Below are positions 46,619 to 64,000 of a DNA stretch of 64,000 nucleotides, piece after piece. Source of the stretch: a virus (lineage: Duplodnaviria > Caudoviricetes); the IMG/VR virus record IMGVR_UViG_3300028591_000136, positions 1 to 64,000 of that record, one strand, 5' to 3'. The position numbers were made by a program, and so were the translations under genes. The notes below the pieces were generated by a model, which searched no databases, had not been told where the DNA came from, and saw only the letters and a list, made by a program, of their open reading frames with translations. Each line of letters opens with the position of its first letter. Position 1 is the first letter of the stretch.

Positions 46619-46652
46619 ATTGTTTAATTTTATTTTGCAAATTACAACGGCG

Positions 46653-46732: not shown

Positions 46733-46799
46733 TGGGAGAGATAGTAGAGAGGGCGAACATCCCCCTAAGAACCCCCTAATATATATTATATACATTAAG

Positions 46800-47755: not shown

Positions 47756-47817
47756 AGATATTGAACCACTAGAATGGGACGATATAGACTTCTAAACAGT
47801 ATTTAACCCCCTAAATT

Positions 47818-48282
47818 ATGGCAAAAATAGACCCAAATGCTAATCTATATGATATTGATGGTAATTTAATATCTAAAGCACCTTTAAAGAATAAAACCAT
47901 CAGTGAAGTAGAGCAATTAGTTGATGATTTAACTAAAAAAGTTGAAGAAAATCCTGATAATGAAGTATACAAAGTATACTTAAATAACGCTCAGTCCTTC
48001 CTATTTGCTATGTATAATAACATGAGTAAGGAAGATTTAATCTCACGTATCTCAGCCCTACAAAGCAGTGTAGAAGCAGCTAAAACTGAGGTAAATGAAG
48101 CAGAACAAAAGCAGTTAGAAGAAACAAATAAGGCATTAGATGAACTTAAAAAGACGATTGAAAGCCAAAATGGAAGCTCAAAAGAGCCAGGAACAGAAGC
48201 AAGCTCAGAACCTGAACAAGGATCCAAAACAGTGACACCTGAGGAAATGGATCAGTATGTAGAGTATGAAGAAATACTATAA
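47818..48282 (+). CDS. Acidic coiled-coil hypothetical protein
   Basis: Intact 154-aa ORF. Confidence 0.65.
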   Translation: MAKIDPNANLYDIDGNLISKAPLKNKTISEVEQLVDDLTKKVEENPDNEVYKVYLNNAQSFLFAMYNNMSKEDLISRISALQSSVEAAKTEVNEAEQKQLEETNKALDELKKTIESQNGSSKEPGTEASSEPEQGSKTVTPEEMDQYVEYEEIL

Positions 48283-48402
48283 ATAGAAAATTAAACAGCT
48301 AGAATACGAAAGATATCTATTATATCAAGAATTATTTACAAGATAGATAGAATCATTATGTATTGAAAGTTATCTTAAATGTCGTTAAAAATAATAAAGA
48401 AT

Positions 48403-48437
48403 ATAGCCCTGGGAGAAATCCTGGGGCTAATTTTTTT
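48403..48437 (+). terminator. Intrinsic terminator ending the plus-strand late unit
   Basis: TAGCCCTGGGA-gaaa-TCCTGGGGCTA followed by ATTTTTTT. Confidence 0.7.
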
Positions 48438-48788
48438 GCAAAATTTTTTATTTTATGAATACGGAAAGGAGAAATTTTATAATTTTTTATTTTATTATAG
48501 GTGCAAAAACACGAAACAGTAATGAACTGACTCCCCATCATCGATTGAAATGGAAACCACCCCCCAGCACAATCTAAGTCTCTTCTAGTATTCAGGCAAG
48601 AACAGTACTTGCCTTAGGCCATCGCAGCGGTAGCTAACGGAAACGTTAGTCTTAGAAGAGTCCGTCTGACATCCGGGGAGAGAAACGCAACGTGTACCAT
48701 ACACTGACGCCTCTCTAGGATCGGCCATGTACATTGCGCTGAGCACAATCTAAGTCTCTCGTAGATAACAACCAAATACACATATATT

Positions 48789-48980
48789 ATGGCACAAACA
48801 TCTACAACCGCATTTTTCTGCACGTACTGCAATCGTGCAGACACTAAGGGAGAGTGGCGCAAATCCCGTGAATATCCTTCAGTTGAGGCACTTTTAAAGG
48901 CAATGACACCATACCTTGCCAAGTACCATAACACACAGGTAACGTATCAGACACGCACAGTGTATTCCCTTCAGCCGTAA
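48789..48980 (+). CDS. Small early hypothetical protein
   Basis: ATG after an AT-rich leader, TAA stop, and a hairpin at the end. Confidence 0.5.
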   Translation: MAQTSTTAFFCTYCNRADTKGEWRKSREYPSVEALLKAMTPYLAKYHNTQVTYQTRTVYSLQP

Positions 48981-49392
48981 GGCTGTTGGGTATACGCTTG
49001 GCTCAAACTAAATATCTCATAGATGACAGTAACAAATACAAGATATTATGGCAGCAAATAAGGCTTATTTAGAACAGCTACTTGAAACCAATAGGTTTTA
49101 TGGTGGCAACAATACTGTTGAACAGTGTATTAGGTTGAACGACTACGACACATCATACGATGAGTCAGGTGTCAGAGATGATGTGCTTGATGCGTTTGGC
49201 GTGTGAGTTAGGGTTTTATACAAAATCCGCTTACGCGCTACCGCACAAGCACAAACTAAATCTCTCCTAGTATTCAGCATACAAACAATAAGGGAATGCG
49301 AAACTGTACAGTGAGGTAGCGGGAAGACCATAATCCTCCGCCTGAGCAGATACGGATTCCCTTAATATATAGCGTAATCAATACAGAACAAT

Positions 49393-49770
49393 ATGAAGTA
49401 CAAATTAATTTCAGCAAAAGAGGTATACATTCCTCATTATGGTTTGAAAACAACAGCCATTTATAAAATGGTAACAGAAAATGCGCTAGTGTTCCCGCAG
49501 CACGTAACGTTTTGGCACAGACATGCTCCAGTAGAACTGGAAGCAGACTTAGTACAAGTCAAATTGGATGTGCCACACGTGTGGATTGGTAATGACGGCT
49601 GTATGATGCGGACAGCAACAGGTCATCTGATGTTGACCCAAAACGAAATACTGTTTTGCCCTAAAACAAAGGAAGGACTGTATTTTATGGGTTACTCTCC
49701 ACAAGAACAAAAAGCACGTCTAATGACACGCTTGTTGCCATGTAAATGGGCAAGACCAGAGGAGGCATAA
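49393..49770 (+). CDS. Early hypothetical protein
   Basis: Intact ORF followed by the terminator GGAGGC-ataaca-GCCTCC-TTTCTTTT. Confidence 0.6.
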   Translation: MKYKLISAKEVYIPHYGLKTTAIYKMVTENALVFPQHVTFWHRHAPVELEADLVQVKLDVPHVWIGNDGCMMRTATGHLMLTQNEILFCPKTKEGLYFMGYSPQEQKARLMTRLLPCKWARPEEA

Positions 49771-49825
49771 CAGCCTCCTTTCTTTTGACAATTCATTTAA
49801 GTTCCACAAATAAAATCGTATTATT

Positions 49826-50362
49826 ATGTTGTACAATGTAGTTTCATTCGTAAAACAAATCGTGCCACAGGGTAAGCAAAACGCAGGCACACAGTATGCA
49901 GTTGTAACCATCGAAGACCCTGAAGATGGTGAACGTCGCGAAGTACCAGTATTTGATGCTGAAGCAAAGCGTTATTTAGACCTTGTACCAAATGCAACTG
50001 TCGGACAAGTAAATCCACTTCCCGATACTGCACCAGACAATCTCAAAGTATGGAAGAATTGTTTCGACAAAGAATTCACATTCCCCGAGACAATGGTACG
50101 AGTTAACGCACAAGGTCAGCCTGAACTGAATAAGTTCAATCAAATGCGTGTACGAAATTCAGTCCTCGTCATGACACGATACAAGCGTGATAACGAGACT
50201 GGAGAACTCGCAATCCGAAGAGGTTGGGACTTGACCACTCGTGGCACAAGTATCATGAACGCATTCTACATGCCTCTTCGTGTATTCAACAACACAGCGG
50301 GTGGTGGTGAAGCACTATCCCTTGAAGAGCAGGCGAAGAAAAACGCAGATTTGCCTGTTTAA
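49826..50362 (+). CDS. Early protein, possibly OB-fold/SSB-like
   Basis: Beta-rich N-terminus and a flexible tail ending ADLPV; the similarity is weak. Confidence 0.45.
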   Translation: MLYNVVSFVKQIVPQGKQNAGTQYAVVTIEDPEDGERREVPVFDAEAKRYLDLVPNATVGQVNPLPDTAPDNLKVWKNCFDKEFTFPETMVRVNAQGQPELNKFNQMRVRNSVLVMTRYKRDNETGELAIRRGWDLTTRGTSIMNAFYMPLRVFNNTAGGGEALSLEEQAKKNADLPV

Positions 50363-50537
50363 TTATCTACGTAGCGTACGTGCGGGGTGTAGTTAAGTCT
50401 ACACTCTGCACACACGTGTAATTTATTATAGGCTTTATCCAGCGCTCTCCGTATACAACCTGCATATTGCTATGTTATACACAACCTCAATGACTTTGTT
50501 ATGACGATTCTAATAATATAATTAAAAAGAAAGAATT

Positions 50538-50753
50538 ATGTGGAAACCAGGTCAAATAAAATGGCTCAGTAGTAGAAGATACAGAATAAAAAAGGCTAAC
50601 GAATATGTAAGCACAAGAAAAAATATATGTAGCTTATGTAAATTGTCTTGCAATTTGAATACACCGTGTGAATTAAAATTTCACCCAGATTGTGTAAGAC
50701 AATTGCCAGTTGACTGTTACTTCAAACTCGATCCTAGAAAACCAAAATTGTAG
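50538..50753 (+). CDS. Cys-rich KPG-family small protein (paralog 1)
   Basis: MWKPG...CSLC...C...C..QLP.DC. TAG stop followed directly by TGA. Confidence 0.6.
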   Translation: MWKPGQIKWLSSRRYRIKKANEYVSTRKNICSLCKLSCNLNTPCELKFHPDCVRQLPVDCYFKLDPRKPKL

Positions 50754-50757
50754 TGAT

Positions 50758-51072
50758 ATGAAAAAATCAACACGAATCCTTGCAATTATTGTGCTTTTGC
50801 TTGGGTTCTTTGTGCTATCACAGCATTTACAAGCACAAAATGTGGTACGTAATGGGAAGGTATTTGTACAATCACAAACATCAGGTGATTCAACAAAGAC
50901 TGACTATGAGTATCAGGATAAAGATGGCAATAAATATGTCATCTATCTCTCATCAAAAGGCAAGGCATATTGCTGGATGAAGTCTAAAAAGACTGGCAAA
51001 TTATACAAGCGATATTTGCCGAAAATAACTGCAATGCTTAACGACATTGATAATGGAAAATATTCTCGTTGA
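50758..51072 (+). CDS. Exported/membrane-anchored small protein
   Basis: Signal peptide MKKSTRILAIIVLLLGFFVLSQHLQA. Confidence 0.6.
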   Translation: MKKSTRILAIIVLLLGFFVLSQHLQAQNVVRNGKVFVQSQTSGDSTKTDYEYQDKDGNKYVIYLSSKGKAYCWMKSKKTGKLYKRYLPKITAMLNDIDNGKYSR

Positions 51073-52202
51073 GTACGCAGGGTTTGATTGTTTAAACATT
51101 ATAACAAATGAAACAGTTAAAACCAAGAGTAGTTCGAGACTTCAGAGGTCAAGACTACGTTCAAACAAGTAATGTATGTGGTAATACCACGTATGTTCGT
51201 AATTATCAGGTTGAATATTAGGTATGTGTGCAAATATATCAATTGACGAAACACTTGGTTTAGAACTCTTAAAACAAATGGCATTTGATTTAGGAATAGT
51301 TTTACCAGAATATGAACAAGAACAAAAAACCAATGATATTTGGTACACATAAACTCTCTCGCACCTGAGCATGTGAATAAACTGCTCACATCTCTATCAG
51401 AGAATGGTAAGACTAATCGATATAGTCATAGAGAACAAAAACATCACATCTACATGTGCTTACAGTACTATCTGGTACGATATCTATAGTCCAACGACTT
51501 GAGTGTCACATTCAAGGATAGATATGAGTCAGATGTGTGATGATACTCCTGCAGTCCTAAAAACCTTAAGGGGACAGAGGTGCAACATGTGCGTAGTATA
51601 CTATGCAGTCAGGTCATGTGAAGAATATATGATACAAAATCCTGGTTTGAGCAATCACCTTGAGCTCATATATTATCTATGTATCAGTCGACAGTTCATG
51701 GATATAACAGGCGTTTAATCGTTGAATTAATGTAGTACGTAAAGCTACAAAGCTCCTTAGGAAAGAGCGAACCTTACATTGTACTGTGTAAGGTAATGTA
51801 AACGTGCGGGGATTTGTGAGGCTTATAGTGCAATCACTGGCTATCGGCTAACCACATTCCCCGCTTTTTAGTCGAATAACCACATCTCCTACATATAAAT
51901 CAGCTCTTTTCACTCGCGAGCTGTAAGGGTCAGCGGATTGTGATCAGGATAACATTCGCGTATTGAACAATTTTCGTTTAGTCTCATCTAGCTGGCCCTT
52001 TTTAATTGATTATGTTAAATATATATATACCAATAGTCATTACGTACGGCGGGCTTAAAGCATGTAAAACAGATATCTACGGAGTATTCAAATTATTTGA
52101 CTGTTCGTCAATATGGATATGGGATGTAGATATTATTTCGCCTTTTAATACCTAGGCAAGGGGGTTGACCTACCAAGTAACTAATTTTAAATCATTATCA
52201 AA

Positions 52203-52304
52203 ATGAAAAAGAGACTTGACAAAAGAGTGAAAGACTTACTATTAGCTGTAAGTATATTCACATTCTTATTTCTCATTTACACAATTATTCTAATATTCCA
52301 TTAA
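52203..52304 (+). CDS. Small membrane peptide, 33 aa
   Basis: Preceded by the ATTATCAAAATG leader; one hydrophobic helix. Confidence 0.45.
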   Translation: MKKRLDKRVKDLLLAVSIFTFLFLIYTIILIFH

Positions 52305-52305
52305 T

Positions 52306-52524
52306 ATGAGTAAGATGAGAGTTGGCCAAAACCTCGAGATTGGCACAAAGAAGTATCGGATAACTCGAGCTAAGAATAAAAACATCCGATGTCGTGTATG
52401 CCAGGAACATAACAAATGTGTTCCTTGCGTGAATCCTGATCCAACAGTAGACAATCCTATTGTATGGACTACTAAAGATTGTCATGAGAAATTACCTGAT
52501 AACGCTTATCCTTATCCTTTATGA
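52306..52524 (+). CDS. Cys-rich KPG-family small protein (paralog 2)
   Basis: MRVGQ.L.I...YRI...CRVC...C...DCHEKLP. Confidence 0.55.
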   Translation: MSKMRVGQNLEIGTKKYRITRAKNKNIRCRVCQEHNKCVPCVNPDPTVDNPIVWTTKDCHEKLPDNAYPYPL

Positions 52525-52703
52525 AGAGTATCAAAGGAATATTCATTGGAACTGTCAAAGCGTGCCTCTATATAGGAACATTAATTGGATTGTATTGGGC
52601 TTTAAATGGTTTTAAAACACTTGCACAAATTGACATTATAGGCATTTTAGCAGTCGGTGCTATAATCAGACATTTTGTAGATAAAGAACAACATTATGAG
52701 TAA
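52521..52703 (+). CDS. Small two-TM protein
   Basis: Two hydrophobic segments; overlaps its neighbours. Confidence 0.55.
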   Translation: MKSIKGIFIGTVKACLYIGTLIGLYWALNGFKTLAQIDIIGILAVGAIIRHFVDKEQHYE

Positions 52704-52860
52704 AATTTGGACTTGGATTAGTGGTTTTGCTGTACTGTTAAGCGCTTTTTGTACGTTAGAACGTGCATTAGATGGTGACATATCAGCTTCATTAGCTTGG
52801 GGAGCATTGACATTATATAACGTAGGTTTTATAATGTCAAGAATTAAAGACAAAGCATAA
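52696..52860 (+). CDS. Small two-TM protein, 54 aa
   Basis: MSKIWTWISGFAVLLSAFCTLERALDGDISASLAWGALTLYNVGFIMSRIKDKA; fills the gap between neighbours. Confidence 0.5.
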   Translation: MSKIWTWISGFAVLLSAFCTLERALDGDISASLAWGALTLYNVGFIMSRIKDKA

Positions 52861-52861
52861 T

Positions 52862-53095
52862 ATGTGGAAACCAGGAAATTTAGTAACGATTCAAGAACGC
52901 ATCCCTATGGATGGTTCATTCTTAATTGTGTCGACAAAGTGCAGAGTCGTACACAACAGTGGACATCACAGATGTTTAAATTGTCCAATGCAACAAAAGT
53001 ATTGCAATATAGACAAATGTGAACAAATGCTCCCACAAAATTGCACACTCAAAAAAGCTCAAATAGATCCTGAGCAAGTAGTGGATCTAAATTAA
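52862..53095 (+). CDS. Cys-rich KPG-family small protein (paralog 3)
   Basis: MWKPGNLVTI...CLNC...C...CEQMLPQNC. Confidence 0.6.
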   Translation: MWKPGNLVTIQERIPMDGSFLIVSTKCRVVHNSGHHRCLNCPMQQKYCNIDKCEQMLPQNCTLKKAQIDPEQVVDLN

Positions 53096-53109
53096 AACAT
53101 TTATCAAAA

Positions 53110-53613
53110 ATGAAAAAGAACGAAATCAGATTTATCTCAACTGAGAATGGTATCAACTGTGAAGGTAACGTCACATTATCACAAGCAGACAGAAAAAAAG
53201 CAGAAGAAATGTTCGATAAAGTACAGGATGCTGCAAAAAACTGTGGTACAACACTCTCGCTGTCACCAGTAGGTATTCAGCTTGGATTTAATGTAGCGTT
53301 ATCTTGTGATACTAAATGTATCAACGAAGCTGATGCACGTATGAAATGCATTATTGAAGAGATGCGTGAATTCATCGGTAAGCTGGAGCCAGAGAAGGAC
53401 GAAAAAACTTCTGAAGACGAGCTTATTGCCAAACAACAGCATGAAGCAATAGACAAGTTCTTCGACGAGATGCATGAAAAATATCCAAACGCCAAACTCA
53501 CAATTGTATGTGACGATAATGATTGGACTGCTGTCGCTAGCAATATGCATCCTATGCATGTGTTACATTGTATGGTTGGAGCAATAGCCAATGAACATGG
53601 AGAAAATCAATAA
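53110..53613 (+). CDS. Early hypothetical protein, 167 aa
   Basis: Intact ORF with the AAACATTTATCAAAAATG leader. Confidence 0.65.
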   Translation: MKKNEIRFISTENGINCEGNVTLSQADRKKAEEMFDKVQDAAKNCGTTLSLSPVGIQLGFNVALSCDTKCINEADARMKCIIEEMREFIGKLEPEKDEKTSEDELIAKQQHEAIDKFFDEMHEKYPNAKLTIVCDDNDWTAVASNMHPMHVLHCMVGAIANEHGENQ

Positions 53614-53824
53614 AACATCACCTCCTCGCCCTAAAAATGGGCGGGAGGTTGTACTCAACAAACCGTGTACTATTTTAAAGAAAGATGGTACAACTACATC
53701 TGTTGCAGGATATGGGCCACAAAAGGCCTGTGAAGCGTTTGTGTTCTCTATGAAGAATAATGCAAAGAATCTTAATATCAAACTTGTTGGTAATTATATT
53801 GTTAAAAAGACAATCATAAAATGA
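53591..53824 (+). CDS. Basic hypothetical protein
   Basis: Overlaps both neighbours. Confidence 0.5.
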   Translation: MNMEKINKTSPPRPKNGREVVLNKPCTILKKDGTTTSVAGYGPQKACEAFVFSMKNNAKNLNIKLVGNYIVKKTIIK

Positions 53825-54222
53825 GGTATCGAAAGGTGGTAAATCCACATTTTGTATCAAATGAAACATCTAAGATATTAAGAACTCTTGATATCGATGA
53901 TGATGAAATTGATGCAGTAATTGACCATATACGCATAAAGTACAATGTACATGTGTATAATTATGCAGCCCCATTTGTGTCAAAAGAAACAGAAACCAAA
54001 AACGTAGTATTATACGGCTTTGGTGTAAAATTCTGCAATCTTAAACATGGATGGAATCATCGTGTATATATTGGTAAAACACCGTGGATTAAAAATATTT
54101 ATGATGCTAAAAGAAAAGCAATAAATATCGCGATTAAGTGGATCTTGAGCCACAAGTCTCAGGAAAAGTGTAAATTTATACGCATAAAGAAAAATGGTAC
54201 CAGCAAAACAAAATCGAATTGA
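53821..54222 (+). CDS. Hypothetical protein
   Basis: Intact ORF in operon. Confidence 0.6.
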   Translation: MRYRKVVNPHFVSNETSKILRTLDIDDDEIDAVIDHIRIKYNVHVYNYAAPFVSKETETKNVVLYGFGVKFCNLKHGWNHRVYIGKTPWIKNIYDAKRKAINIAIKWILSHKSQEKCKFIRIKKNGTSKTKSN

Positions 54223-54285
54223 TCCAGGTTTCTGGATAGGTCTTTTACTGATTGCAATTTTACTTTACTGCACAATTAAATGTAA

Positions 54286-54699
54286 ATGATTATGCAAAAA
54301 GGTCAAATTGTAAGAAAATGTCTCTCAAATGGCACAATAGTCGGTGCTTATTGGATGGTTATAGGAGTTAAACGTCCAAATTTAGTTAATGTACAATCTC
54401 TCGCAAGCGAAAAAATAAGAGAATTTGTACGAAAAGACAGACTACATGTGTGTAAAACAGTAAAATTGATTATCTCACATCGTGTATACGATCGTGTAGA
54501 AAAAGAAGTACAAAACGCCATTATTCATGATTCAACTAAAAAATGGTTGGATTTGTTTGAAAAACAACCTGACATTGTTCAATTACGCTCAGAACTATAT
54601 GAAGAGCGTACCATGTTATTCTGTGTAGATCAAACTATAAAGATCCAAACAGAAAATGGTATTCGAATACGACTAGACTTGGGCGAAAAGATATTATGA
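54286..54699 (+). CDS. Hypothetical protein
   Basis: Intact ORF in operon. Confidence 0.6.
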   Translation: MIMQKGQIVRKCLSNGTIVGAYWMVIGVKRPNLVNVQSLASEKIREFVRKDRLHVCKTVKLIISHRVYDRVEKEVQNAIIHDSTKKWLDLFEKQPDIVQLRSELYEERTMLFCVDQTIKIQTENGIRIRLDLGEKIL

Positions 54700-54893
54700 C
54701 TACAATATTAAAACCAGGACGACTAATTACTCTTAATAATACTGTATATCAGGCTAAATTAGGAGAAAATGGTTGTGAAGGGTGTGATAGAAATAGTATA
54801 AATCTATGTCCAATGATAGTCGATAGAAGATTTGAAGAACCAAGGTATGATTGTAAAACATATGGCGTTATATTGAAACGAATTAAACAATGA
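54696..54893 (+). CDS. Cys-rich KPG-family small protein (paralog 4)
   Basis: LKPGRLITL...YQA...GCEGC...C...DC. Confidence 0.55.
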   Translation: MTTILKPGRLITLNNTVYQAKLGENGCEGCDRNSINLCPMIVDRRFEEPRYDCKTYGVILKRIKQ

Positions 54894-55029
54894 TAGTTTC
54901 ATAAAATTCTGATTTTCTAGAATCAACGGTTCGTGAGAATAGTTGATTCAAATTATTTAGCGCATAGAACTCACCAGATAGCAGGAAACCTCAAGGCCTG
55001 CCAGGTTACGCTCCACCAAAAATGACAGT

Positions 55030-55530
55030 TTAAGTCTGAAGAGAGAAGGATGGTCGCGAACAGGTGTAACCCAATGAGGAGAGGGTGCGCGCACGGCATG
55101 TATACAGGAATGGCAGAGTGTCCGAACTGCCTATACATGCCTTATTGGCCAAAAGGCCCCTAATTGATGGGTAAAATCTTTCAAGTGACGGCTCACAAGG
55201 CGCGAATAGTCACAAGTCAGACGCAGGGCTGACACAGTTGTGAAGAATTATACAAGTGAATCAGACTCCATGGAAATTCCTAGGGATCTAGTATGATTTT
55301 AGCAACCCCACAGTCGTGTCATGACCACTCATTTGAGAAGCGCCTATTGATAACGTACGCCGTGAGTGCAACTGTGGGAACAATATACGTCCGAGGTGGT
55401 TTGGAGGATCCCGAAATCAAGCTTGCAGAGAATAGGGAGTGTAGGACGTTATTTTATGAGGTTTAGTGCTGTACCGTATGACGATTCGGGAAACGTCCCA
55501 AAGGTTATAATGGTTGCCTTTTATGCTTGC
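55030..55530 (+). ncRNA. Large, highly structured non-coding RNA candidate next to tRNAs
   Basis: GC-richer than its flanks. Many helices: 55095-55104/55132-55141, 55307-55314/55371-55378, 55326-55331/55363-55368, and crossing pairs TCCCGAA/TTCGGGA with GGACGTT/AACGTCC. Strand inferred from context. Confidence 0.55.
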
Positions 55531-55546
55531 GTCAAACAGCACACAC

Positions 55547-55618
55547 GGCCGCATCGTCTATCGGCTAGGACGAGAGATTTTCATTCTCTAAAGAGGAGTT
55601 CGACTCTCCTTGTGGCTA
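55547..55618 (+). tRNA. tRNA-Glu(TTC)
   Basis: Cloverleaf with anticodon arm AGAGA-TT[TTC]AT-TCTCT and T-loop TTCGACT. Confidence 0.85.
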
Positions 55619-55752
55619 CAAATTATTAAAACGGATGCTGTGGTATGGATGTTACGAAACCGGGGTCGCGCAAGAAGCAGCTTATAAATCATGACCCGCT
55701 GCTAGGAGATACAGAAGTATCCACAGTTGTCGCCAGACGTCTATAGGCGACA

Positions 55753-55825
55753 GCGTTGTTAGCTCAGTTGATAGAGCACCGGCTCAATAAGCCGGAGGTC
55801 GTTGGTTTGAGTCCAACACGACGCA
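55753..55825 (+). tRNA. Aberrant tRNA (loop TCAATAA: AAT in the canonical register, CAA in a shifted register)
   Basis: All stems intact, but C at position 33, D-loop GA instead of GG, and T-loop TTTGAGT. Confidence 0.6.
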
Positions 55826-55864
55826 CAATGCAATATTGCAGAAAATGATCAAAACATTATCAAA

Positions 55865-56224
55865 ATGGCAAAGAAACTTGTTTTTGCAAGCAACGACGAG
55901 TGCAAAAAAGCATCTTCAATTCTAAAACAAAACAACATTGAACATGTTCTCGTCACCTACAAACACGAAAAGAACGAAAAAGTTTTTATCGTTGTACGAA
56001 ATGTGATTCTGAAAGATGTAAATCAGATAAATCTTCGGATTTCACGAGTAAAATCTATGCGACACTTTGAGAACACGGCTAATAAGCATAATTACTTTGA
56101 GCCACAGTTTGTATGCAAATGTAGAAACTGTGGCAAAGAGTTTAAACATCGCATAAAAGAGGCTGTGTGGTGCTCAAAAGAATGTCATAAAGCGTTTAGA
56201 AACGCAAAACGACAAGTTAAATAA
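55865..56224 (+). CDS. Protein with a C-terminal zinc-finger-like motif
   Basis: Motif CRNCGKEF...WCSKEC. Confidence 0.65.
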   Translation: MAKKLVFASNDECKKASSILKQNNIEHVLVTYKHEKNEKVFIVVRNVILKDVNQINLRISRVKSMRHFENTANKHNYFEPQFVCKCRNCGKEFKHRIKEAVWCSKECHKAFRNAKRQVK

Positions 56225-56293
56225 GGTCTATTCCAAGTCTTCCTCAAAGACTGGATGTTAACTAAAGTTTAATCTCAAAAATTATCAAAGTTT

Positions 56294-56836
56294 ATGAGAA
56301 AATTATTAAGCTTAATGCTTGTAGCAGCAATGGGAATTATACTTCTCGGAAGCTGTGAACGTTTGGGTATCAAAAGTCCAGGAGACAACTATGATACCTC
56401 TGATTCTGCACAAGTAGCAGAGTATGTAAATCATGCAGTAAATCCATCTATTATGGATATTGCAGAAGCGCTCTCTCTGAAGCAACAAATGCTTGAAAAA
56501 CAGTCTATCGACTCTGCGTTTGTATCTCTTTCTGATGCTACAATAAGAAATGTTGCATCTGTGTTACTGAAAAAGAACAGTTTTATACACAAGAAAGATA
56601 TTATAGACGAGTATCGACGATGTCAAAACGTATACGACAATCTTCCGACTGACATAAAAGCAACTGCCGTTGATAAAACTGCTACTGATTTAGGCACTAG
56701 GCAGTCTGGAGGAAATGATTCAACTGATCCTGCTAGTTCCAGCAATGTTATTAGCAATAACCTTAGCTTTAGGACTGACACTATCGCTGGCAAGCCGACT
56801 AGAGTCAAAATTCAAACGATAGAAAGTTATGAATAA
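56294..56836 (+). CDS. Lipoprotein
   Basis: Signal peptide ending in the lipobox LLGS-C. Confidence 0.7.
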   Translation: MRKLLSLMLVAAMGIILLGSCERLGIKSPGDNYDTSDSAQVAEYVNHAVNPSIMDIAEALSLKQQMLEKQSIDSAFVSLSDATIRNVASVLLKKNSFIHKKDIIDEYRRCQNVYDNLPTDIKATAVDKTATDLGTRQSGGNDSTDPASSSNVISNNLSFRTDTIAGKPTRVKIQTIESYE

Positions 56837-57488
56837 GCACGCTATAGTAATATTATATTCAGGCGCAGATCGTGATCCTGGGTATGATGTGATTGAGAGT
56901 ATTGCTAGTGTTATAACACAAGCAGGATTAGCTGTACCTGAACTGATAGAAATTAAACATTTCAACTCAGATTCTATTGGTAAAGCATTGCTTACGAAGA
57001 GCGCTGAAGATTCGAAGATCTCTTTTACAAAAAATCTTGATGCAAAGAAAGTATGCATTACACTTGATACACAAGATTGCGAAAACAAACTCCAAGTTGT
57101 AAAATGTATTAAGGAATTCCTTGATTGTGGTCTTAAAGAGGCAAAGGATATGTTCGATTGTGGCAAGGTTTATATTCCTAAATCCTGGACCGATAACAGA
57201 ATCTATGCCTTTATAGAAGACCTTCACATCCACAAAGCCGCTGTAACAAGCGGCATAGAAGACATTGCTATGATACAGGCAGCTATCTTCTTGAACGGTA
57301 CTTATCGTACAAAAGACAGTATCATTTTCGTGAGAGATTTTGCTGCAGCAACGTATCACTTTCATACCAATGGTGCTAATGAAGAAGAACGAGCGTTGTT
57401 GACAGCTGTTGAATTGGTTAAAAACAATCCAAAAAGCGCCGTTAGGTGGGTATCATCAGAGTTAGTAAACGTAATCAACTCGTTGTAG
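56829..57488 (+). CDS. Protein containing a ribosomal bL12 (L7/L12) C-terminal-like domain
   Basis: NKLQVVKCIKEFLDCGLKEAKDMFD matches the bL12 CTD signature K..VIK.VRE.TGLGLKEAKDLV. Confidence 0.7.
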   Translation: MNKHAIVILYSGADRDPGYDVIESIASVITQAGLAVPELIEIKHFNSDSIGKALLTKSAEDSKISFTKNLDAKKVCITLDTQDCENKLQVVKCIKEFLDCGLKEAKDMFDCGKVYIPKSWTDNRIYAFIEDLHIHKAAVTSGIEDIAMIQAAIFLNGTYRTKDSIIFVRDFAAATYHFHTNGANEEERALLTAVELVKNNPKSAVRWVSSELVNVINSL

Positions 57489-57658
57489 TATGTGTTGGCA
57501 TCAAGATTATCGTACGGGTAAAACAGTTCGTTATAAGGCGTCTGACAAGTCAAAACACGCTAATGCTGTTCCCTACAAACGTGCTGAAAAGCATAAAATG
57601 TCCACTAAGGACTATGTTCAATAAACTTTAAGTTAAACAATTAAAACATTTATCAAAA

Positions 57659-58315
57659 ATGACAGACAAAACAAAAAAGGAGACAAAACCTGTAGTATTA
57701 ACACAAGACAACGTCATCGAACAGGCTAAAGCTGGTAACATCATGACCACTGACATGGTCAACAAGATGAACGAAGAGTTAAAAGATGAGCAGAACAAAC
57801 AAGTAATTGCTGAAACCAAGCGTCGTTACACCAAGATTGCATATGTTCGCAGCATGTCTTTGGTGCACAAGCGTAAGTCATCAGACTATGATAACATGAG
57901 CACGTACAATATACGTCAGCTCGGTCGTCTGGAGAGATTCTTGTGTGGTTTTGTAGTAACCGACATCATCGTCGACGAGTTTGCTCGTACGAAGGATGAT
58001 ATCCTTGAGCTGGAGGTGCTTGATGAGAAGAAGAAGACTCTTACCATCAAGATTCCTAACGCTGATGGCAAGCGTGAGGCTAAAGAATTCAAAGTCGGTG
58101 ATAGCGTTCCTCCTGTGATCAGCTATATCGAGTTCGACGAAGCCGTCGAGAAGCTCGAGAAGAAGCTGCGTGAGAAACGCACGGAAATCGAGAATAAGCA
58201 CACCGAAGAGGTTAAGACCATCAAGCAGGCAGCTGGTGAATACTACTGCAGCGACTGGTCATACAACCTTAAGATTGTGACTATGGACGGTTTCCAGAGT
58301 GCTCGTGGTTGGTAA
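57659..58315 (+). CDS. Probably highly expressed hypothetical protein, 218 aa
   Basis: MCP-like codon bias and the AAACATTTATCAAAAATG leader. Confidence 0.7.
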   Translation: MTDKTKKETKPVVLTQDNVIEQAKAGNIMTTDMVNKMNEELKDEQNKQVIAETKRRYTKIAYVRSMSLVHKRKSSDYDNMSTYNIRQLGRLERFLCGFVVTDIIVDEFARTKDDILELEVLDEKKKTLTIKIPNADGKREAKEFKVGDSVPPVISYIEFDEAVEKLEKKLREKRTEIENKHTEEVKTIKQAAGEYYCSDWSYNLKIVTMDGFQSARGW

Positions 58316-58335
58316 CCACAGTGATTCACTTATCC

Positions 58336-58790
58336 ACACAGTTCGAGCCTAGAGCCAATACTGTGTAAAACAGAGAATGCAGACTACGTTATGGATAATC
58401 CGTATAATACAGTGAAGTGGGTATTGCACCGTGATTCTTCCAAGCATTAGTACGGTAGGGTATCGACACTCGCATTCAACAAATTGTAGAATTAACTACA
58501 CATACTAAAGAGCCTAGAGCCATGTATGGGATAAAAACGCCGTCCACACGGTGTAAAATATGTGGTCATTTGATCAAAATCACGAATCATGTTGAGCCTT
58601 GAGCCAACATTATGTTGCATGATGATTTCAAGAATGCAGATATGACCTATTTCCGAGCCTTGAGCCAGCATTTAGACCACCATATCACCTAATTTTAAGG
58701 TTTCAAGAAAAGCCTTTCTAAGCGTTTTTAAAGCTTGAGTGGATTAGCTACCCACGAGAGTAGAGAAAATGTCTCAGAGAGCCTAGAAAT
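58336..58790 (+). repeat. Array of GAGCCTWGAGCCA motifs, mostly enclosed by sequence-variable stems
   Basis: Copies at 58345, 58510, 58594 and 58655, plus a partial copy at 58779. Confidence 0.8.
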
Positions 58791-58839
58791 GGCCTTAAAT
58801 CGAATGTTTTGACTGATCATCTTAACATTCACAACAAGA

Positions 58840-59115
58840 ATCTTAGCGTGTCCCAGGATACGTCGTTCGGACGGGGGTTCGATTCCCCCCAGGTCCACCT
58901 GTACGGTTCTTTTACGTAGCGACCGATGGGTACAGCCGGTGAATTTTCTACCTAAAAAGAAAAGCTACAATCCGGGCTTGAATGGTTTAGACGGCGACAG
59001 AAAGTAAGACATTAAGCGCTTTGATATAAAAATTAACTGGCAATATTAAAATTGCAGACTACACGGGTCTCAAGGAGGCAGCGTGAAGTCGGTGTACAGG
59101 CTACCTAAGTGCCTG
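58840..59115 (+). ncRNA. ssrA: Circularly permuted (two-piece) tmRNA
   Basis: The 3' tRNA-like half (GTCGTT..GGGGG-TTCGATT-CCCCC-CAGGTCC-A, 58862-58897) precedes the 5' half (GGGCTTG-AATGGTTTAGAC-GGCGAC, from 58974). The acceptor stem has the G3.U70 pair. Resume context TAACT-GGC; tag GNIKIADYTGLKEAA-TGA at 59039-59086. Outer boundaries are approximate. Confidence 0.85.
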
Positions 59116-59123
59116 TGAAACGA

Positions 59124-59198
59124 GAATGAGTTGAGTGAGAGGATAACTGTCCTGCAGCTTTGCCGGATCACGTGGGTTCGAATCCCACACTCATTCCA
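59124..59198 (+). ncRNA. tRNA-like element with canonical acceptor stem and T-arm but non-canonical D and anticodon arms
   Basis: GAATGAGT...GTGGG-TTCGAAT-CCCAC-ACTCATTC-CA. Confidence 0.55.
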
Positions 59199-59297
59199 AG
59201 CGCGAGAGCGTGATTTGGTATCCTTTGGCATAATACAACAAATTGTTTTTTTAGTTATTTAAGGAATGATTTCTAGCCCTACGGTGGTAGGGCATCT

Positions 59298-59371
59298 GGA
59301 CTTGTAGCTCAGCTGGTTAGAGCACATGACTCATAATCATGGGGTCCCAGGTTCAAACCCTGGCTGGTCCA
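59298..59371 (+). tRNA. tRNA with CAT anticodon (elongator Met or lysidine Ile2)
   Basis: Cloverleaf with CATGA-CT[CAT]AA-TCATG. Confidence 0.85.
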
Positions 59372-59470
59372 CGAGTTTTATTACCTATTCTCATTAAAAC
59401 AACGGGTAACTCTACATTTCGAGGGCAAAATGCGCGTGGCCACATTCAAGCGAAATAATGTGGCATGCTT

Positions 59471-59544
59471 GGTTCCTTAGCTCAGCTGGATAGAGCATGA
59501 CACTTCTAATGTCAGGGTCAAAGGTTCGAATCCTTTAGGAATCA
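59471..59544 (+). tRNA. tRNA-Arg(TCT)
   Basis: Cloverleaf with TGACA-CT[TCT]AA-TGTCA and T-loop TTCGAAT. Confidence 0.88.
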
Positions 59545-59546
59545 CT

Positions 59547-60080
59547 ATGAAAAAATTAGGATATCGAGAAATGTTACGGGACAGATGTCCCAAAGTTGTT
59601 AGTCATGCTCTCAAATGGCAAAAAGCCAAAGAGAAATGGATTGACCATGTGTATTCTTATTTTGTTAAAATACTTGGCGATGAAGTCGACATTGATGATA
59701 AGATTGTAAAAACAGCAAAAGATAACAAACGAACTGTTATTAGCTTCTTATTAGGAATGAAGAAAGGAAAAATCAAGAATTTTAACTTTAAGAATACAAT
59801 TGATTGGGACAACTTATCAGATGAAGAGACTAAATATTGGGAAACGGTCTCAACATGGGTAAGATGGTTCAGTACTAAGTATGGGTATATAGAAAACCTA
59901 TACGATATCTCTAAAAAGGTAGGTAAAGATGAAGAGACTATTAAAATCGAAATCATCAATAGCTATCTTGGTGCACTAATGCCGTCTCGCGACGCACCTG
60001 AGGAGGAAAAACAAGCTAAATATAATTATGTAGATAGATTTGTTGAATTCTTAATTAGGTGTTTTGAAGGAAAAATATGA
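59547..60080 (+). CDS. Hypothetical protein, 177 aa
   Basis: Intact ORF starting immediately after tRNA-Arg. Confidence 0.65.
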   Translation: MKKLGYREMLRDRCPKVVSHALKWQKAKEKWIDHVYSYFVKILGDEVDIDDKIVKTAKDNKRTVISFLLGMKKGKIKNFNFKNTIDWDNLSDEETKYWETVSTWVRWFSTKYGYIENLYDISKKVGKDEETIKIEIINSYLGALMPSRDAPEEEKQAKYNYVDRFVEFLIRCFEGKI

Positions 60081-60502
60081 TTAGTGTATATTCCCACTAT
60101 TTAGACCCCATAGACGGGGAAACTGATGCATTTGAAAAACCTAGTACTACAATATGCAGGCTACGTAACGCATACAATCAAGGCGTAGAAGGTATATTAC
60201 AAAATGCTAGAGTTTTTGCATTGAACGATGGCGAAATTGATGATGAAATTTTATATGAAGTTTGGAGGAATGAATATCTTCATGATATACTAATGTGGAT
60301 AAACAAGAAAATTGTAATCTTATTAGATATTGCTGATTATCGAACCATAGGTGTTCGAATGCGTATTGCGATCGGTAGACTAAACAAATTAGTCTATGAA
60401 GGTAAATTATCTGAAAAATTGAGTAGAAAAATTCACTACAATTTCGTGACTACAATTAACGGAGAAATCTCAGCTATAAATACTGAAGATTTACCGTTTT
60501 AG
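60077..60502 (+). CDS. Hypothetical protein ending EDLPF
   Basis: Intact ORF. The TAG stop is backed by TGA two codons later. Confidence 0.65.
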   Translation: MISVYSHYLDPIDGETDAFEKPSTTICRLRNAYNQGVEGILQNARVFALNDGEIDDEILYEVWRNEYLHDILMWINKKIVILLDIADYRTIGVRMRIAIGRLNKLVYEGKLSEKLSRKIHYNFVTTINGEISAINTEDLPF

Positions 60503-60705
60503 GGCTGACAACTTAATCTGGATTAGTATTCCAGCAGCCCGCAATACTTGACGAGGGTGGGTGGAATAAATCTCTCACACAGTACTGAGAGGCAGTAGGC
60601 ACCACTATGGTAGGTAGTACGAAAGTGGAGTGTAGTCAAGTAAACTTATACAGCACCGTCTGTTACGCGAGTGACACGCTAATAACCGGTAAAATTGTTT
60701 TGATT

Positions 60706-61263
60706 ATGAACCCACGTATTACCCCAGAGGAGGTTGGGATAATCAAAAGAGCGCAAGCAGGTGATGAACTTGCTTTTAATGCACTTTATCATAGGTACAA
60801 AGGATTCGTGGAAAATCTCCTTTTTCATTATCTTAAAGATATGGATGAGGCCAAGGAAATTGCAAATGTAGTTTTCTTAAAAGTGCATGAGAAACTCTCT
60901 AAGTTCACAGCTTATGACTCCTTTGGAGGATGGCTGAGAATTTTAACAAATCGAACTGCTATCGATTATCTTCGTAGTATAAAGAACAAGCAAACAGCTT
61001 CTGACGTGAAAGAAGAACGACTTACTTCTGACATTCAGGGTTCTACAGAAAATGATCTAGTCAATCATTTGACCTATAAAGCTTTGTTGCGTGAATTCTT
61101 AACGTTTCCAGAGGTCACTCGTAAGATCTTTGAACGTTTCTACATTGATAATATGACAGTAGAAGAGATTAGTGAGTCGTTCAATCCTAAAATCCCAACT
61201 GGAACTATTAAGTCAACGTTGTCTAGGACTAGACGAAAATTGAAAAAACGTTTAAAACTCTAA
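60706..61263 (+). CDS. ECF-type RNA polymerase sigma-70 factor, 185 aa
   Basis: Region 2 (GDELAFNALY...AKEIANVVFLKV...FGGWLRILTNRTAIDYLR) and region 4 (EEIS...PTGTIKSTLSRTRRKLK). Likely start MNPRIT at 60706. Confidence 0.88.
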   Translation: MNPRITPEEVGIIKRAQAGDELAFNALYHRYKGFVENLLFHYLKDMDEAKEIANVVFLKVHEKLSKFTAYDSFGGWLRILTNRTAIDYLRSIKNKQTASDVKEERLTSDIQGSTENDLVNHLTYKALLREFLTFPEVTRKIFERFYIDNMTVEEISESFNPKIPTGTIKSTLSRTRRKLKKRLKL

Positions 61264-61267
61264 GAAA

Positions 61268-61678
61268 ATGACATTAGCTTTGTTCATTTTTGCGATTGCA
61301 CTTGCTCTTGGTATAGCTCGCTATAACAATAGCAACAAGCTATTTTGGACGTTATTGACGTGCTTTATACTTGGCATCGCATGCACTAAGATTGTCCATG
61401 ACACTCTTAGTGAGAAGGAACAGAGTGAACAGTCGCTCGATCAGGCGTATCCCACACAGGGGTTAGCAGTTACGGGGAACACATTTATGTTGTTCACAAA
61501 TCCCGATAACTGTTTAACAGACGTGAAGGTAACTTCAAAACCTGTGAGTCAGGCTATTACGCCTGATTATATCGAGTTACTGAACACTCTAAGTAATGTC
61601 TCTGGGGTGACTCAGGGATTATATCTTCATACCCTACCTAACCCACCAAATAAGGTAGAACTCGTAGATACATCATGA
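61268..61678 (+). CDS. Two-TM membrane protein directly after the sigma factor
   Basis: Two N-terminal hydrophobic helices; 4-bp gap from the sigma gene. Confidence 0.6.
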   Translation: MTLALFIFAIALALGIARYNNSNKLFWTLLTCFILGIACTKIVHDTLSEKEQSEQSLDQAYPTQGLAVTGNTFMLFTNPDNCLTDVKVTSKPVSQAITPDYIELLNTLSNVSGVTQGLYLHTLPNPPNKVELVDTS

Positions 61679-61761
61679 AAATATCTATATGAAGAAAATA
61701 TAGGTCACAGTTAAGTAGTTTGACCGGCTACAAGTAAATAATTCTAAATCACATTATCAAA

Positions 61762-63186
61762 ATGGGAAATAACAAAAAATCTGCAGCTCAGAAGGCAGCA
61801 GAACAGCAGGCAGCTGCACAGCAGGCTCCTGCAGAAGGAAAGGTAGAAATGCCTACCACAAATGTAAACCCTCAAACAAAGGGTCTTACACAGGGCGAGA
61901 AGGTTGCTTATCTAGGTGCTCTCCAGACGGAGCGTGCTTATATGATGAACAACATAGAGAAGCCCTCTAAGGTGTTTATCGATGGTCTCACTATGCTTGC
62001 TCATGCAACTATCATCGATATTGGTATTGGTGAGATAGCTACTGGCTGTAGCGCAGTTGGTTATATCTCAACCATCAACGAGCAGAATTACGGTTTCTTC
62101 CGTGATATGGCTGCTGAGATGGGTGTGAAATTGCCAGAGTTCAAAGCTCTACCTGCTCCCACAGAGGAACAGTTGCAGAAAGCCGGTATCGCTGGTATTT
62201 TGCCCAATGCTAAGATGATTACCATTGGCAAGAATAACGTTGAAAAGAGCGTTATTGACAAGAAGAAGGAAGAAATTCGTGCTACCGAAAAGGCCGTCGA
62301 GAACCCAGCCGACGTAAAGAGCGATGAGCAGCTGAAAGCCTCTCTTACAGCTATGCTTATCAAGCCAGTAGGTAACGACGAAGCAAACAAGAACAGACCT
62401 GATCCTCGTGTTCAGCGTACTATCAACTTCTATAATGGTTATCTGACTATTCAGGCTAACAACGCCGAGAATAAGGAGGAAGCCTTGAAGAAGGTGAAGG
62501 AGAAGAGCCGCATTCAGCTGCTCACTGAGATTTCGGAGATTGTAGGTCCATGTCCGTTCGCTCTGAGCGGTATTGCCAAGTTTCTTCGAAACCGTGCCTT
62601 TGAGACCGGTTCTCCTATCTCATCTTACTGCTTCTATCGTCGTTGTGCCATTGAAAAGGGTAAGGATGCCGATGATCAGTACGTGGCTGACCTGGTTCGC
62701 ACCATTCTAGTATGGTCTTGTAAGAGTAATATCGCAGAGTTTAATAAGCTTCTCGAGACTCAGGAAAAGAACGTAAAGAATGAGAAGGGTGCTGCTAAGA
62801 CAGCTACTGAGTCCGCTATTCGTTACAATAAGACTCAGATTGAGGAGATGAAGCGCATCATCGATGAGGTTTCTGAACCTAACTTCGATTGTGTTGATTC
62901 TCTGATTGAGGATTATAACAGCGATGAAAAGAGCGAGAAGTACAGATTGTCTCATCGTGTTGTAGATGATATTATGAAGACATATTATCCTGAGGTGGAT
63001 CGCACCAAGGTTGATGAAATGTCTATGCTCGCAGCTGTTCAGCAGCGTGCTGGTATCATCATCAATATGTTCCGCAGTCCTCTCAACCAGAATCAGGCAT
63101 ATTGTGAGGCTAATCTCAGCAATATTGTCGAGAAGAAGGTTGAAGAGAAACCTGCAGAAAGTGCTGAGGGTGAGTCAAAAAACTGA
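61762..63186 (+). CDS. Probably highly expressed hypothetical protein, 474 aa
   Basis: Long ORF with strong codon bias and the CATTATCAAAATG leader. Confidence 0.75.
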   Translation: MGNNKKSAAQKAAEQQAAAQQAPAEGKVEMPTTNVNPQTKGLTQGEKVAYLGALQTERAYMMNNIEKPSKVFIDGLTMLAHATIIDIGIGEIATGCSAVGYISTINEQNYGFFRDMAAEMGVKLPEFKALPAPTEEQLQKAGIAGILPNAKMITIGKNNVEKSVIDKKKEEIRATEKAVENPADVKSDEQLKASLTAMLIKPVGNDEANKNRPDPRVQRTINFYNGYLTIQANNAENKEEALKKVKEKSRIQLLTEISEIVGPCPFALSGIAKFLRNRAFETGSPISSYCFYRRCAIEKGKDADDQYVADLVRTILVWSCKSNIAEFNKLLETQEKNVKNEKGAAKTATESAIRYNKTQIEEMKRIIDEVSEPNFDCVDSLIEDYNSDEKSEKYRLSHRVVDDIMKTYYPEVDRTKVDEMSMLAAVQQRAGIIINMFRSPLNQNQAYCEANLSNIVEKKVEEKPAESAEGESKN

Positions 63187-63264
63187 TTAAGGTCCTCATA
63201 GACTGGTTTAAGGATATGTGGGACCGATACTACTGGCTTCATTGGTAATTTAAATCTATCAAAG

Positions 63265-63711
63265 ATGAAATACGTAATGACAATTTTGTGTTCCTTTGCA
63301 TTTGCCATCGCTGGTATATGCTTAGCAATACAGAATAATAGTAGCAGTCCTGGTTATAATCAGAATGCTATTCACGCATCTACGCTTCCCAAATATGGGA
63401 CGCCAAAGTTGCCACTTGATCTCCAATTGGATTTGGAGAAGAAGTACTCTAAGACAGACACTGTGTATTTGCCTTCTGACACGGTGTTTGTAACGAAACA
63501 ACAGAAGGCCAAACCTAAAGTCCGTAGAGCGCATACACTCAAATCGGCTTCGATGAGTCGTCAGAGTTTACGCAGTCCAGCGTATAATCCTGACTCCATT
63601 GTGAAAAACAAAGTATGTGGGGATCGTGAGGAGCATACCCCAGACACTATTGGACTTCCTAAAAGTTCCATTATCCTCGTTGTCGACGGCGAGGAAGTCT
63701 ACAAACGTTAA
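63265..63711 (+). CDS. Membrane-anchored/exported hypothetical protein
   Basis: N-terminal hydrophobic segment; the start may lie slightly upstream. Confidence 0.55.
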   Translation: MKYVMTILCSFAFAIAGICLAIQNNSSSPGYNQNAIHASTLPKYGTPKLPLDLQLDLEKKYSKTDTVYLPSDTVFVTKQQKAKPKVRRAHTLKSASMSRQSLRSPAYNPDSIVKNKVCGDREEHTPDTIGLPKSSIILVVDGEEVYKR

Positions 63712-64000
63712 TAGCTCCGCAGGGGGACAGTATGAGGATTTGTACTGTCCCACCCCGTTGGGGACCTGGTCAGCATTCGTCTAAGGAATTGGTCCCATTA
63801 GCCATAGAATGCGAAATAGTACAACTTGATCCGAGAATATGTCAGCCTTCTCAAAAGGTGAGAAACCCAAAAGGTAGGATGAAATGCTGCATTGTATACG
63901 TACTATATACCGAAAAGTTTGCAGTAAGAGGACAGAGCGTTTGTATCAAGTCCTTTGGCCATTGAGAACCGTCTGGAGAATGGGTGACCATAAAAACGCG

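Follow-up and report, generated by a model that had tools for sequence, protein, structure and literature searches.

A circularly permuted tmRNA gene in a TAG-recoded crAss-like phage and its possible origin from a one-piece Bacteroidota gene

Introduction

Permuted tmRNAs are known from alphaproteobacteria and from some cyanobacteria and betaproteobacteria, and Bacteroidota normally have the one-piece form. A locus with the permuted order in a phage of Bacteroidales raises three questions: whether it is a tmRNA gene in two pieces, what the phage would gain from it, and where its order came from. The locus lies within the window, by which we mean the whole stretch of 64,000 nucleotides that was analysed, i.e., positions 1 to 64,000 of a virus record that is 101,107 bp long and rated as complete. 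A preliminary description, made from the letters alone, had read it as a circularly permuted two-piece tmRNA of a recoded crAss-like phage, had taken the permutation to be an independent one, and had suggested a role of the tmRNA in the code switch.

The phage and its genetic code

The phage encodes major head, portal and terminase proteins of the crAss type, and its nearest labelled relatives belong to the Suoliviridae, subfamily Oafivirinae. Its major capsid protein is ~85% identical to that of cr272_1, and the window represents a separate genome. When TAG is read as a sense codon, the coverage by open reading frames of at least 150 aa rises from 29 to 52 kb, and this rise is confined to the late block on the minus strand. 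At the head of this recoded block lies a gene for tRNA(CUA) (Table 1), whose anticodon loop, CUCUAAC, reads UAG. Three G.U pairs occur in its 7-bp acceptor stem, and its CCA is encoded; Rfam detects this tRNA with 32.3 bits, while ARAGORN misses it even at relaxed settings. The coverage, the tRNA(CUA) and the crAss-type proteins together bear out that this is a recoded crAss-like phage.

In-frame TAG codons are found almost wholly in the minus-strand late genes (1-46000), with up to 20 per gene, as against the plus-strand part at 46000-64000. The gene for the major head protein (15930-17438) has zero in-frame TAG. The tmRNA sits in the early-strand block, that is, on the other strand block than the recoded late genes. 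A search of the complete 101-kb genome found no gene for SmpB; thus, a tmRNA of this phage would need the SmpB of the host.

Gene order and parts of the tmRNA locus

ARAGORN reports a permuted tmRNA (tmRNA*) at 58806-59177 of the plus strand, and the Rfam model RF04321 (tmRNA_permuted) matches positions 58838-59086 from end to end, with a score of 65.5 bits (gathering score 47; E 2e-10). From our reading of the sequence, the acceptor (3') piece comes first, then a spacer, and last the coding (5') piece (Table 1), and the same order is found in >40 independent phage genomes, many of them with terminal repeats. The acceptor piece (~58840-58899) and the coding piece (58974 to ~59116) are predicted to pair through a 7-bp acceptor stem of the alanine type and helices P2-P5, so as to rebuild the tRNA-like domain. 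CCA is partly encoded at the acceptor piece: CC is present, and the final A is absent from the DNA.

Table 1. Features of the tmRNA locus, with its neighbouring tRNA-like element and the tRNA(CUA) gene; positions are those of the window.
Feature	Position	Strand	Remarks
tRNA(CUA) gene	44521-44592	-	head of the TAG-recoded late block
Conserved hairpin GAATGTT/AACATTC, loop TTGACTGATCATCTT	58802..58830	+	upstream of acceptor piece; 96% of helix cells paired
Acceptor piece (3' part of a normal tmRNA)	58840..58899	+	sequence reading, Rfam, covariation
3' strands of helices P5/P4/P3/P2	58840-58867	+	within acceptor piece
T-arm GGGGG-TTCGATT-CCCCC	58873-58889	+	within acceptor piece
Acceptor 3' strand CAGGTCC	58890-58896	+	within acceptor piece
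Discriminator A73	58897	+	followed by CC at 58898-58899
Intervening spacer, 74 nt	58900..58973	+	not conserved
Coding piece	58974..59116	+	acceptor 5' strand to pseudoknot
Acceptor 5' strand GGGCTTG	58974-58980	+	gives G3.U70 with CAGGTCC
D-loop analogue AATGGTTTAGAC	after acceptor 5' strand	+	coding piece; sequence reading
P2 5' strand GGCGAC	58993-58998	+	pairs with GTCGTT, 58862-58867
P3-P5 5' strands	59008-59025	+	coding piece
A/U-rich linker, 13 nt, no PK1	between P5 and resume codon	+	unpaired
Tag reading frame GGC...TGA, (A)GNIKIADYTGLKEAA*	59039..59086	+	ARAGORN
Resume-codon hairpin, 5-bp	59040-59055	+	covers resume codon
Helix 5 (GACT/AGTC, ACG/CGT, GTCTC/GAGGC)	59057..59090	+	minimum-free-energy fold
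TGA stop	59084-59086	+	in 3' strand of helix 5
Single H-type pseudoknot	59091..59116	+	S1 GGTG/TACC, 59091-59094 with 59102-59105; S2 ACAGGC/GCCTGT, 59096-59101 with 59111-59116
tRNA-like element	59125..59197	+	directly 3' of coding piece

Conservation of the two-piece structure

A pattern scan of IMG/VR yielded 22 contigs with the same arrangement, almost all of which ARAGORN calls as tmRNA*. Covariation was analysed in a 22-sequence alignment of the upstream hairpin, P4, P3, P2, the T-arm and the acceptor stem. Across the 22 relatives, these helices are 94.7% paired, and changes on both sides, i.e., compensatory changes, are seen in 20 of the 33 pairs; none of 500 shuffles was as high on any measure, and pairing fell to 35-56% when partners were slid. 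The acceptor helix is 99.4% paired with three compensatory pairs, and the T-arm 95.5% with four. In the upstream hairpin, four of seven pairs have both-side changes, for example GGTAT/ATACC in cr273_1, and this hairpin may be a leader or processing element. The G3.U70 wobble is present in all 22 rows, GTCCA-C is invariant, and G3.U70 together with the discriminator A73 provides the identity elements for alanine. A tRNA-like domain with a T-arm of the GTTCGAnTC loop type and a 7-bp acceptor stem built from two ends can thus be recognized.

These results, with the two program calls, uphold the circularly permuted two-piece gene of the preliminary description, including its alanine-type acceptor stem with G3.U70 and its helix GGCGAC/GTCGTT (P2), which is conserved among the relatives. 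A further helix that had been proposed, TAAGA/TCTTA, must be rejected: it is paired in 21 of 110 cells among the relatives, and its place is taken by the conserved helices TGTC/GACA (83/88 cells) and AGCG/CGCT (85/88). The spacer had been described as 76 nt long and structured. A spacer is indeed present, 74 nt in length, but it is no more structured than shuffles (fold z = -0.29), and its sequence and length vary freely among relatives.

Trivially, the permuted order could result from a faulty assembly, or the contig could have taken up a scrambled piece of host ssrA. The recurrence of the order in the >40 independent genomes, which come from different samples and records, the compensatory substitutions, and an independent sheep-gut library with contigs that match the window exactly all speak against such an accident, and its likelihood is negligible.

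The stretch from the tag to the pseudoknot folds far above shuffles in a minimum-free-energy fold (z = -4.17). This fold and the ARAGORN tag agree with the earlier view that the tag ends in AA and that its TGA stop lies in a hairpin, here helix 5. The resume-codon hairpin is paired at 5/5 positions in all 19 rows of the Oafivirinae type, with five sequence variants, and in the Burzaovirus type helix 5 is rebuilt with other letters (TAGACTA/TAGTCTA). Variants of the pseudoknot, read by eye from sequence listings and, for S2, without a tool count, are CGTG/TACG and AGTG/TACT in S1, and TTTCC/GGAGA, ACAGAC/GTCTGT and ACCC/GGGT in S2. RNAalifold, run on 24 aligned sequences from the tag to the pseudoknot, returned no pairs, since the two types of tag do not align properly; helix 5 and S2 were therefore judged from the listings.

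The usual build of a tmRNA has PK1 before the tag and further pseudoknots after it, and PK1 is important in the tmRNAs that have been studied. In the phage gene, PK1 is absent: P5 and the resume codon are separated by 13 unpaired nucleotides, and one H-type pseudoknot follows helix 5. The pseudoknot region is thus very reduced, as had been noted before.

Flanking elements, processing and expression

The tRNA-like element directly 3' of the coding piece scores 33.9 bits with the Rfam tRNA model against a gathering score of 29. Its 7-bp acceptor stem and its T-arm are perfect, whereas the anticodon loop has 8 nt and lacks U33; ARAGORN needs relaxed settings to call it, as tRNA-?(gctt) with a four-base anticodon. 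A tRNA or a tRNA-like T-arm is found 3' of the pseudoknot in nearly all relatives. This position is taken by a genuine tRNA in some relatives and by a mini tRNA-like element or a decayed copy in others. In cr114_1 (NC_055897; sequence L159, 1679-1751), a tRNA-His gene lies inside the tmRNA spacer. From the downstream element and this tRNA-His, we infer punctuation of the tRNA type by RNase P and RNase Z, and the tRNA-like element of the window is likely to be the RNase P/Z signal that would define the 3' terminus of the coding piece. The whole tmRNA gene belongs to a tRNA cluster in which ARAGORN calls tRNA-Met and tRNA-Arg.

Scans for sigma-70 promoters and terminators around the locus gave nothing above shuffles. 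In the non-coding sequence upstream of the tmRNA (58340-58790, plus strand), there are four copies and one half copy of GAGCCT(A/T)GAGCCA, and at least two of the copies appear, by eye, in hairpin loops. The GAGCC motif is also present on relatives' contigs in RNA libraries, with raised depth there.

In gut RNA libraries of sheep and cattle, which stem from different studies and can hold DNA, and whose assembled contigs cannot show ends or levels, relatives' contigs have a depth of 150-550 over 58969-59115 versus 13-68 in the flanks; the depth in a DNA run is flat at ~8.5. The raised depth is a weak hint of tmRNA expression. The sheep-gut RNA library also contains contigs identical to the flanks of the window. 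Contig ends near 59115 had been considered as an RNA end, and this was rejected: they occur in the DNA run too and therefore mark where the likeness of the relatives ends.

Distribution in crAss-like phages and existing records

RF04321 matches 18 of 19 complete IMG/VR relatives whose capsid protein is at least 82% identical to that of the window phage. In a survey of 21 labelled Crassvirales records, the tmRNA was found in four subfamilies: in all five records of Oafivirinae, in cr114_1 of Uncouvirinae, in cr50_1 and cr10_1 of Boorivirinae, and in cr52_1 and cr60_1 of Loutivirinae. The permuted tmRNA is common to most Suoliviridae. The unrecoded phage cr118_1 (NC_055872, ~60709-60872 of the record) has an intact coding piece with the tag GNNVNFFDYTLKVA and a ~16-nt spacer, whereas its T-arm lacks the 5' half; this copy is probably a pseudogene.

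Checking against existing tmRNA records revealed that the Crassvirales form is already on file. The RefSeq records of cr273_1, cr7_1 and cr124_1 that we inspected carry a tmRNA feature named "transfer-messenger RNA, SsrA"; the RefSeq coordinates of cr273_1 and cr7_1 equal the permuted calls of ARAGORN, and cr272_1 has a match under the same label. In Table S1 of Buchholz et al. (2022; PMC9004378), 13 genomes named "CrAssphage crN_1" have the entry "Permuted", and cr106_1 has the entry "linear". A tmRNA database paper of 2025 screened RefSeq viruses and counted 79 phage tmRNAs. Because of the SsrA labels and the entries of Table S1, the tmRNA is not new as an object. In the literature on tmRNA in crAss-like phages or Crassvirales, we found mentions in methods, and no paper analysing the permuted gene. 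With the tmRNA of the window, a phage family that is annotated though not described gains a new member.

The tag frame belongs to this family as well. Among 26 credible distinct tag ORFs, the frame is kept and indels come in threes; 13 end with TAA, 13 with TGA, and none with TAG. The tags form one family of the type G/D-N-x-x-hydrophobic-(T/V/A)-D-Y-T-x-(L/I/V)-...-A(A), and the conserved frame (GN..DYT..A(A)) spans Oafivirinae, Boorivirinae, Uncouvirinae and Loutivirinae. In the window, it comprises 15 codons from the resume codon on, with its stop in helix 5. The sole TAG-ended tag called by ARAGORN, VAADVTVP* in the relative L112, looks like a miscall and was excluded.

Possible functions of the phage tmRNA

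On the basis of its sequence features, the locus is quite probably a working tmRNA (ssrA) gene of the phage in circularly permuted form. It would be transcribed as one precursor within the tRNA cluster. Cleavage by RNase P would take place at G58974 and where the downstream tRNA-like element begins, with the spacer lost if two separate pieces result. Trimming after A73 would form the 3' end of the acceptor piece, the CCA-adding enzyme of the host would complete CCA, and host AlaRS would charge the two-piece RNA. With host SmpB and EF-Tu, the charged RNA could then enter stalled ribosomes of the infected Bacteroidales cell, where nascent chains would get the phage's own tag and the ribosome would be released at TGA. 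The likeliest benefit to the phage would be that ribosomes are kept available during mRNA degradation in infection; a changed fate of the tagged proteins may be another. The phage tag ends with EAA or VA, unlike LAA of the host, so that targeting to proteolysis is uncertain.

Another role had been proposed for the tmRNA, namely to rescue ribosomes that stall or mis-terminate at UAG, or that stall on cleaved mRNA, during the switch to the code in which TAG is sense. The window is indeed recoded and has a tRNA(CUA), no credible tag stops at TAG, and a tmRNA is present in 8 of the 11 recoded Suoliviridae sampled (cr273_1, cr7_1, cr124_1, Bohxovirus, cr130_1, cr114_1, cr52_1 and cr60_1). However, cr50_1 and cr10_1 are not recoded and have intact permuted tmRNAs with tags of the family type, the recoded cr56_1, cr6_1 and cr113_1 are without the gene, and the unrecoded cr106_1 of Steigviridae has a one-piece tmRNA. 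Besides cr118_1 with its decayed copy, the sample includes genomes with neither tmRNA nor recoding (cr55_1, cr1_1, Azobacteroides phage and three Steigviridae). In this small sample of related genomes, Fisher's test of tmRNA presence against recoding gives p 0.16-0.6. Thus, the tmRNA gene looks ancestral to Suoliviridae and not tied to the code switch, and the survey weakens the idea of a tmRNA that serves it; we regard this role as unlikely. For recoding in these genomes, the portal matches are informative: they contain 4-16 in-frame TAG in the recoded genomes and none in the others. The portal match of Bohxovirus (PV686213.1, 45608-48037) has 4 in-frame TAA in addition to 12 TAG.

The RNA might also act as a decoy, in which the tRNA-like domain titrates SmpB or AlaRS of the host and blocks host trans-translation, with the tag frame as a vestige. 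There is a precedent in the RNA of mycobacteriophage DS6A, which consists of the tRNA-like domain only and for which such a block has been proposed (PMC4131195, PMC11915505). The strongly reduced set of pseudoknots with its missing PK1 and the lack of a phage SmpB would also fit a decoy. On the other hand, the tag frame, the context of the resume codon, the stop hairpin and the alanine end are conserved in four subfamilies, and only in-frame indels occur. Such conservation is not expected of a vestige and counts against the decoy, to which we give a still smaller chance than to the code-switch role. Tagging and release of stalled ribosomes stays our preferred reading.

Origin of the permuted gene

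Three Rfam models represent the known permuted lineages, and the phage gene fails with all of them: it scores 24.7 bits with the alphaproteobacterial model RF01849 (gathering score 50 for the full model with its lineage-specific helices; model positions 77-179 only), 35.9 bits with the betaproteobacterial model RF01850 (gathering score 84; positions 81-162 only) and 33 bits with the cyanobacterial model RF01851 (gathering score 70; positions 56-120 only). In each case, only the tRNA-like core of the window gene is aligned.

For comparison with the host side, 68 one-piece tmRNAs of Bacteroidota were collected by their GE(N/T)NYALAA tag. TTTGAC is present in 59 of the 68, versus UUCGAC in both Rfam consensuses, and the phage family has TTTGA(C/T) or TTAGAC. 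Glycine as the first tag codon after ATTAA(C/T)TG is common to the Bacteroidota and phage tmRNAs, and CCA is mostly not encoded in the one-piece Bacteroidota genes, like in the phage gene. A GGGC/GTCC acceptor stem is found in some Bacteroidales, and that of Bacteroides sp. GD17 is identical to the window. Moreover, a profile of the Bacteroidota 3' end matches the acceptor piece at 58837-58898 (E 4.2e-8), and the alignment extends past the T-arm into TAAGC(A/G)TGT. The nhmmer profiles of the host 5' part and of the pre-tag region gave no significant match in the window (E 0.74 for the former and none for the latter).

Two further matches were seen with such models. The Bacteroidota 3'-end profile has a second, weak match at 50220-50286 on the minus strand (E 0.001; GGCATGTAGAATGC...), with no T-arm apparent; it seems to lie inside a plus-strand ORF (49814-50362) and is probably due to chance. 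Just past the end of the window, at 64253-64296 (+) of the record, an element resembling a T-arm and acceptor stands at the start of a large non-coding stretch, and the beta and cyano tmRNA models match it weakly (E 0.14 and 0.001).

Since the three lineage models fail and the phage gene has traits of the Bacteroidota type, a separate origin of the phage permutation can be proposed. The independent permutation suggested earlier is accordingly plausible as far as models and Bacteroidota-type traits are concerned, and the host 5' and pre-tag profiles add nothing significant to it. Alternatively, the permuted form may have been captured horizontally, either from a two-piece tmRNA of the alphaproteobacterial, betaproteobacterial or cyanobacterial type or by way of a phage with such a gene, and have diverged afterwards. 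In favour of this, marine and aquatic phages commonly have two-piece tmRNAs (PMC9004378), the gene is broken at a topologically equivalent point, and RF04321, which was built from these three lineages, detects the phage gene. Against capture stand the sub-threshold scores of the three lineage models, which align only to the universal tRNA-like core, the Bacteroidota-type TTTGAC, Gly resume codon and pre-tag motif of the phage gene, and a host-like one-piece relative in another crAss family (cr106_1 of Steigviridae). We consider capture improbable. Descent from a one-piece Bacteroidota gene is the likelier course, judged from few and short characters. The phage gene would most likely have arisen by permutation of a one-piece Bacteroidota tmRNA with loss of PK1 and of elements of the PK3-PK4 type, separately from the alpha, beta and cyanobacterial two-piece lineages.

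In its fullest form, our proposal is that the Suoliviridae tmRNA represents a fourth, independent two-piece origin, in which a one-piece gene of Bacteroidota was permuted within the phage lineage and cut down to ~200 nt, losing PK1 and keeping one pseudoknot. The resume-codon hairpin may replace PK1, tRNA-like punctuation may set the ends of the pieces, and the tag with the phage-specific DYT core would be added to host and phage nascent chains. For this scenario as a whole, the chances seem to us evenly balanced.

With the window, a family already labelled in databases grows by one genome, and the parts that are worth following up are the separate, Bacteroidota-derived origin and the minimal build. 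If the separate origin is true, abundant gut phages have re-invented the two-piece tmRNA. If the functional reading is true as well, trans-translation works with about half of the usual RNA and no PK1, which would offer a natural minimal tmRNA for structural work, and crAss-like phages bring ribosome rescue under their control, using their own tag.

Comparison with known tmRNAs

The closest counterparts are the tmRNAs of Suoliviridae in RefSeq (cr273_1, NC_055904; cr272_1, NC_055903; cr7_1, NC_055895; cr124_1, NC_055899). They belong to the same family, have the permuted order and occupy the same tRNA-cluster position in the early-strand block as the window gene, with which they share 75-83% DNA identity in parts of their length; the tag of cr273_1, GNINVVDYTGLQEAA, is of the same family as that of the window. 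All four phages are among the 13 that Table S1 gives as permuted. The RefSeq records only label the feature: their annotation makes no mention of the permutation and contains no analysis of structure, origin or function.

The two-piece tmRNAs of Alphaproteobacteria, a betaproteobacterial lineage and cyanobacteria (RF01849, RF01850 and RF01851, with the merged tRNA-domain model RF04321) share with the phage gene the upstream acceptor piece, the intermolecular tRNA-like domain, G3.U70, the tag frame and the stop in helix 5. Unlike them, the phage gene has one pseudoknot, no PK1, no fully encoded CCA and Bacteroidota-type traits, and it is found in a phage of Bacteroidales. Marine phages such as OM43 phage Melnitz, pelagimyophages and cyanophages also encode a permuted ssrA without a phage smpB. 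Their tmRNAs resemble the alpha- or cyano-type two-piece genes of their own hosts, and Melnitz adds a glutamine riboswitch, whereas the hosts of Suoliviridae have one-piece genes; thus, the permutation is here a feature of the phage lineage.

The one-piece tmRNA of Bacteroidota (~395-400 nt; tag GENNYALAA or GETNYALAA) has the D-loop analogue of the TTTGAC type and the TAAGC(A/G)TGT motif before the T-arm in common with the phage gene. Colinear in order and equipped with PK1-PK4, the host gene has twice the length of the phage gene, which is permuted and ~200 nt in its mature form, and the phage tag, with its DYT core and an EAA, VA or LAA end, differs from GE(N/T)NYALAA. An instructive case is cr106_1 of Steigviridae (NC_055871; sequence L165, 1579-1882), which carries a one-piece tmRNA of 304 nt with the tag DNTYRVAA. 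It shows the Bacteroidota-type traits GGTTTTGA and GTAAGCATGTG and the pre-tag ATAACTG, and it is shrunken like the Suoliviridae gene; in this other virus family, however, the gene is colinear, and in Suoliviridae it is permuted.
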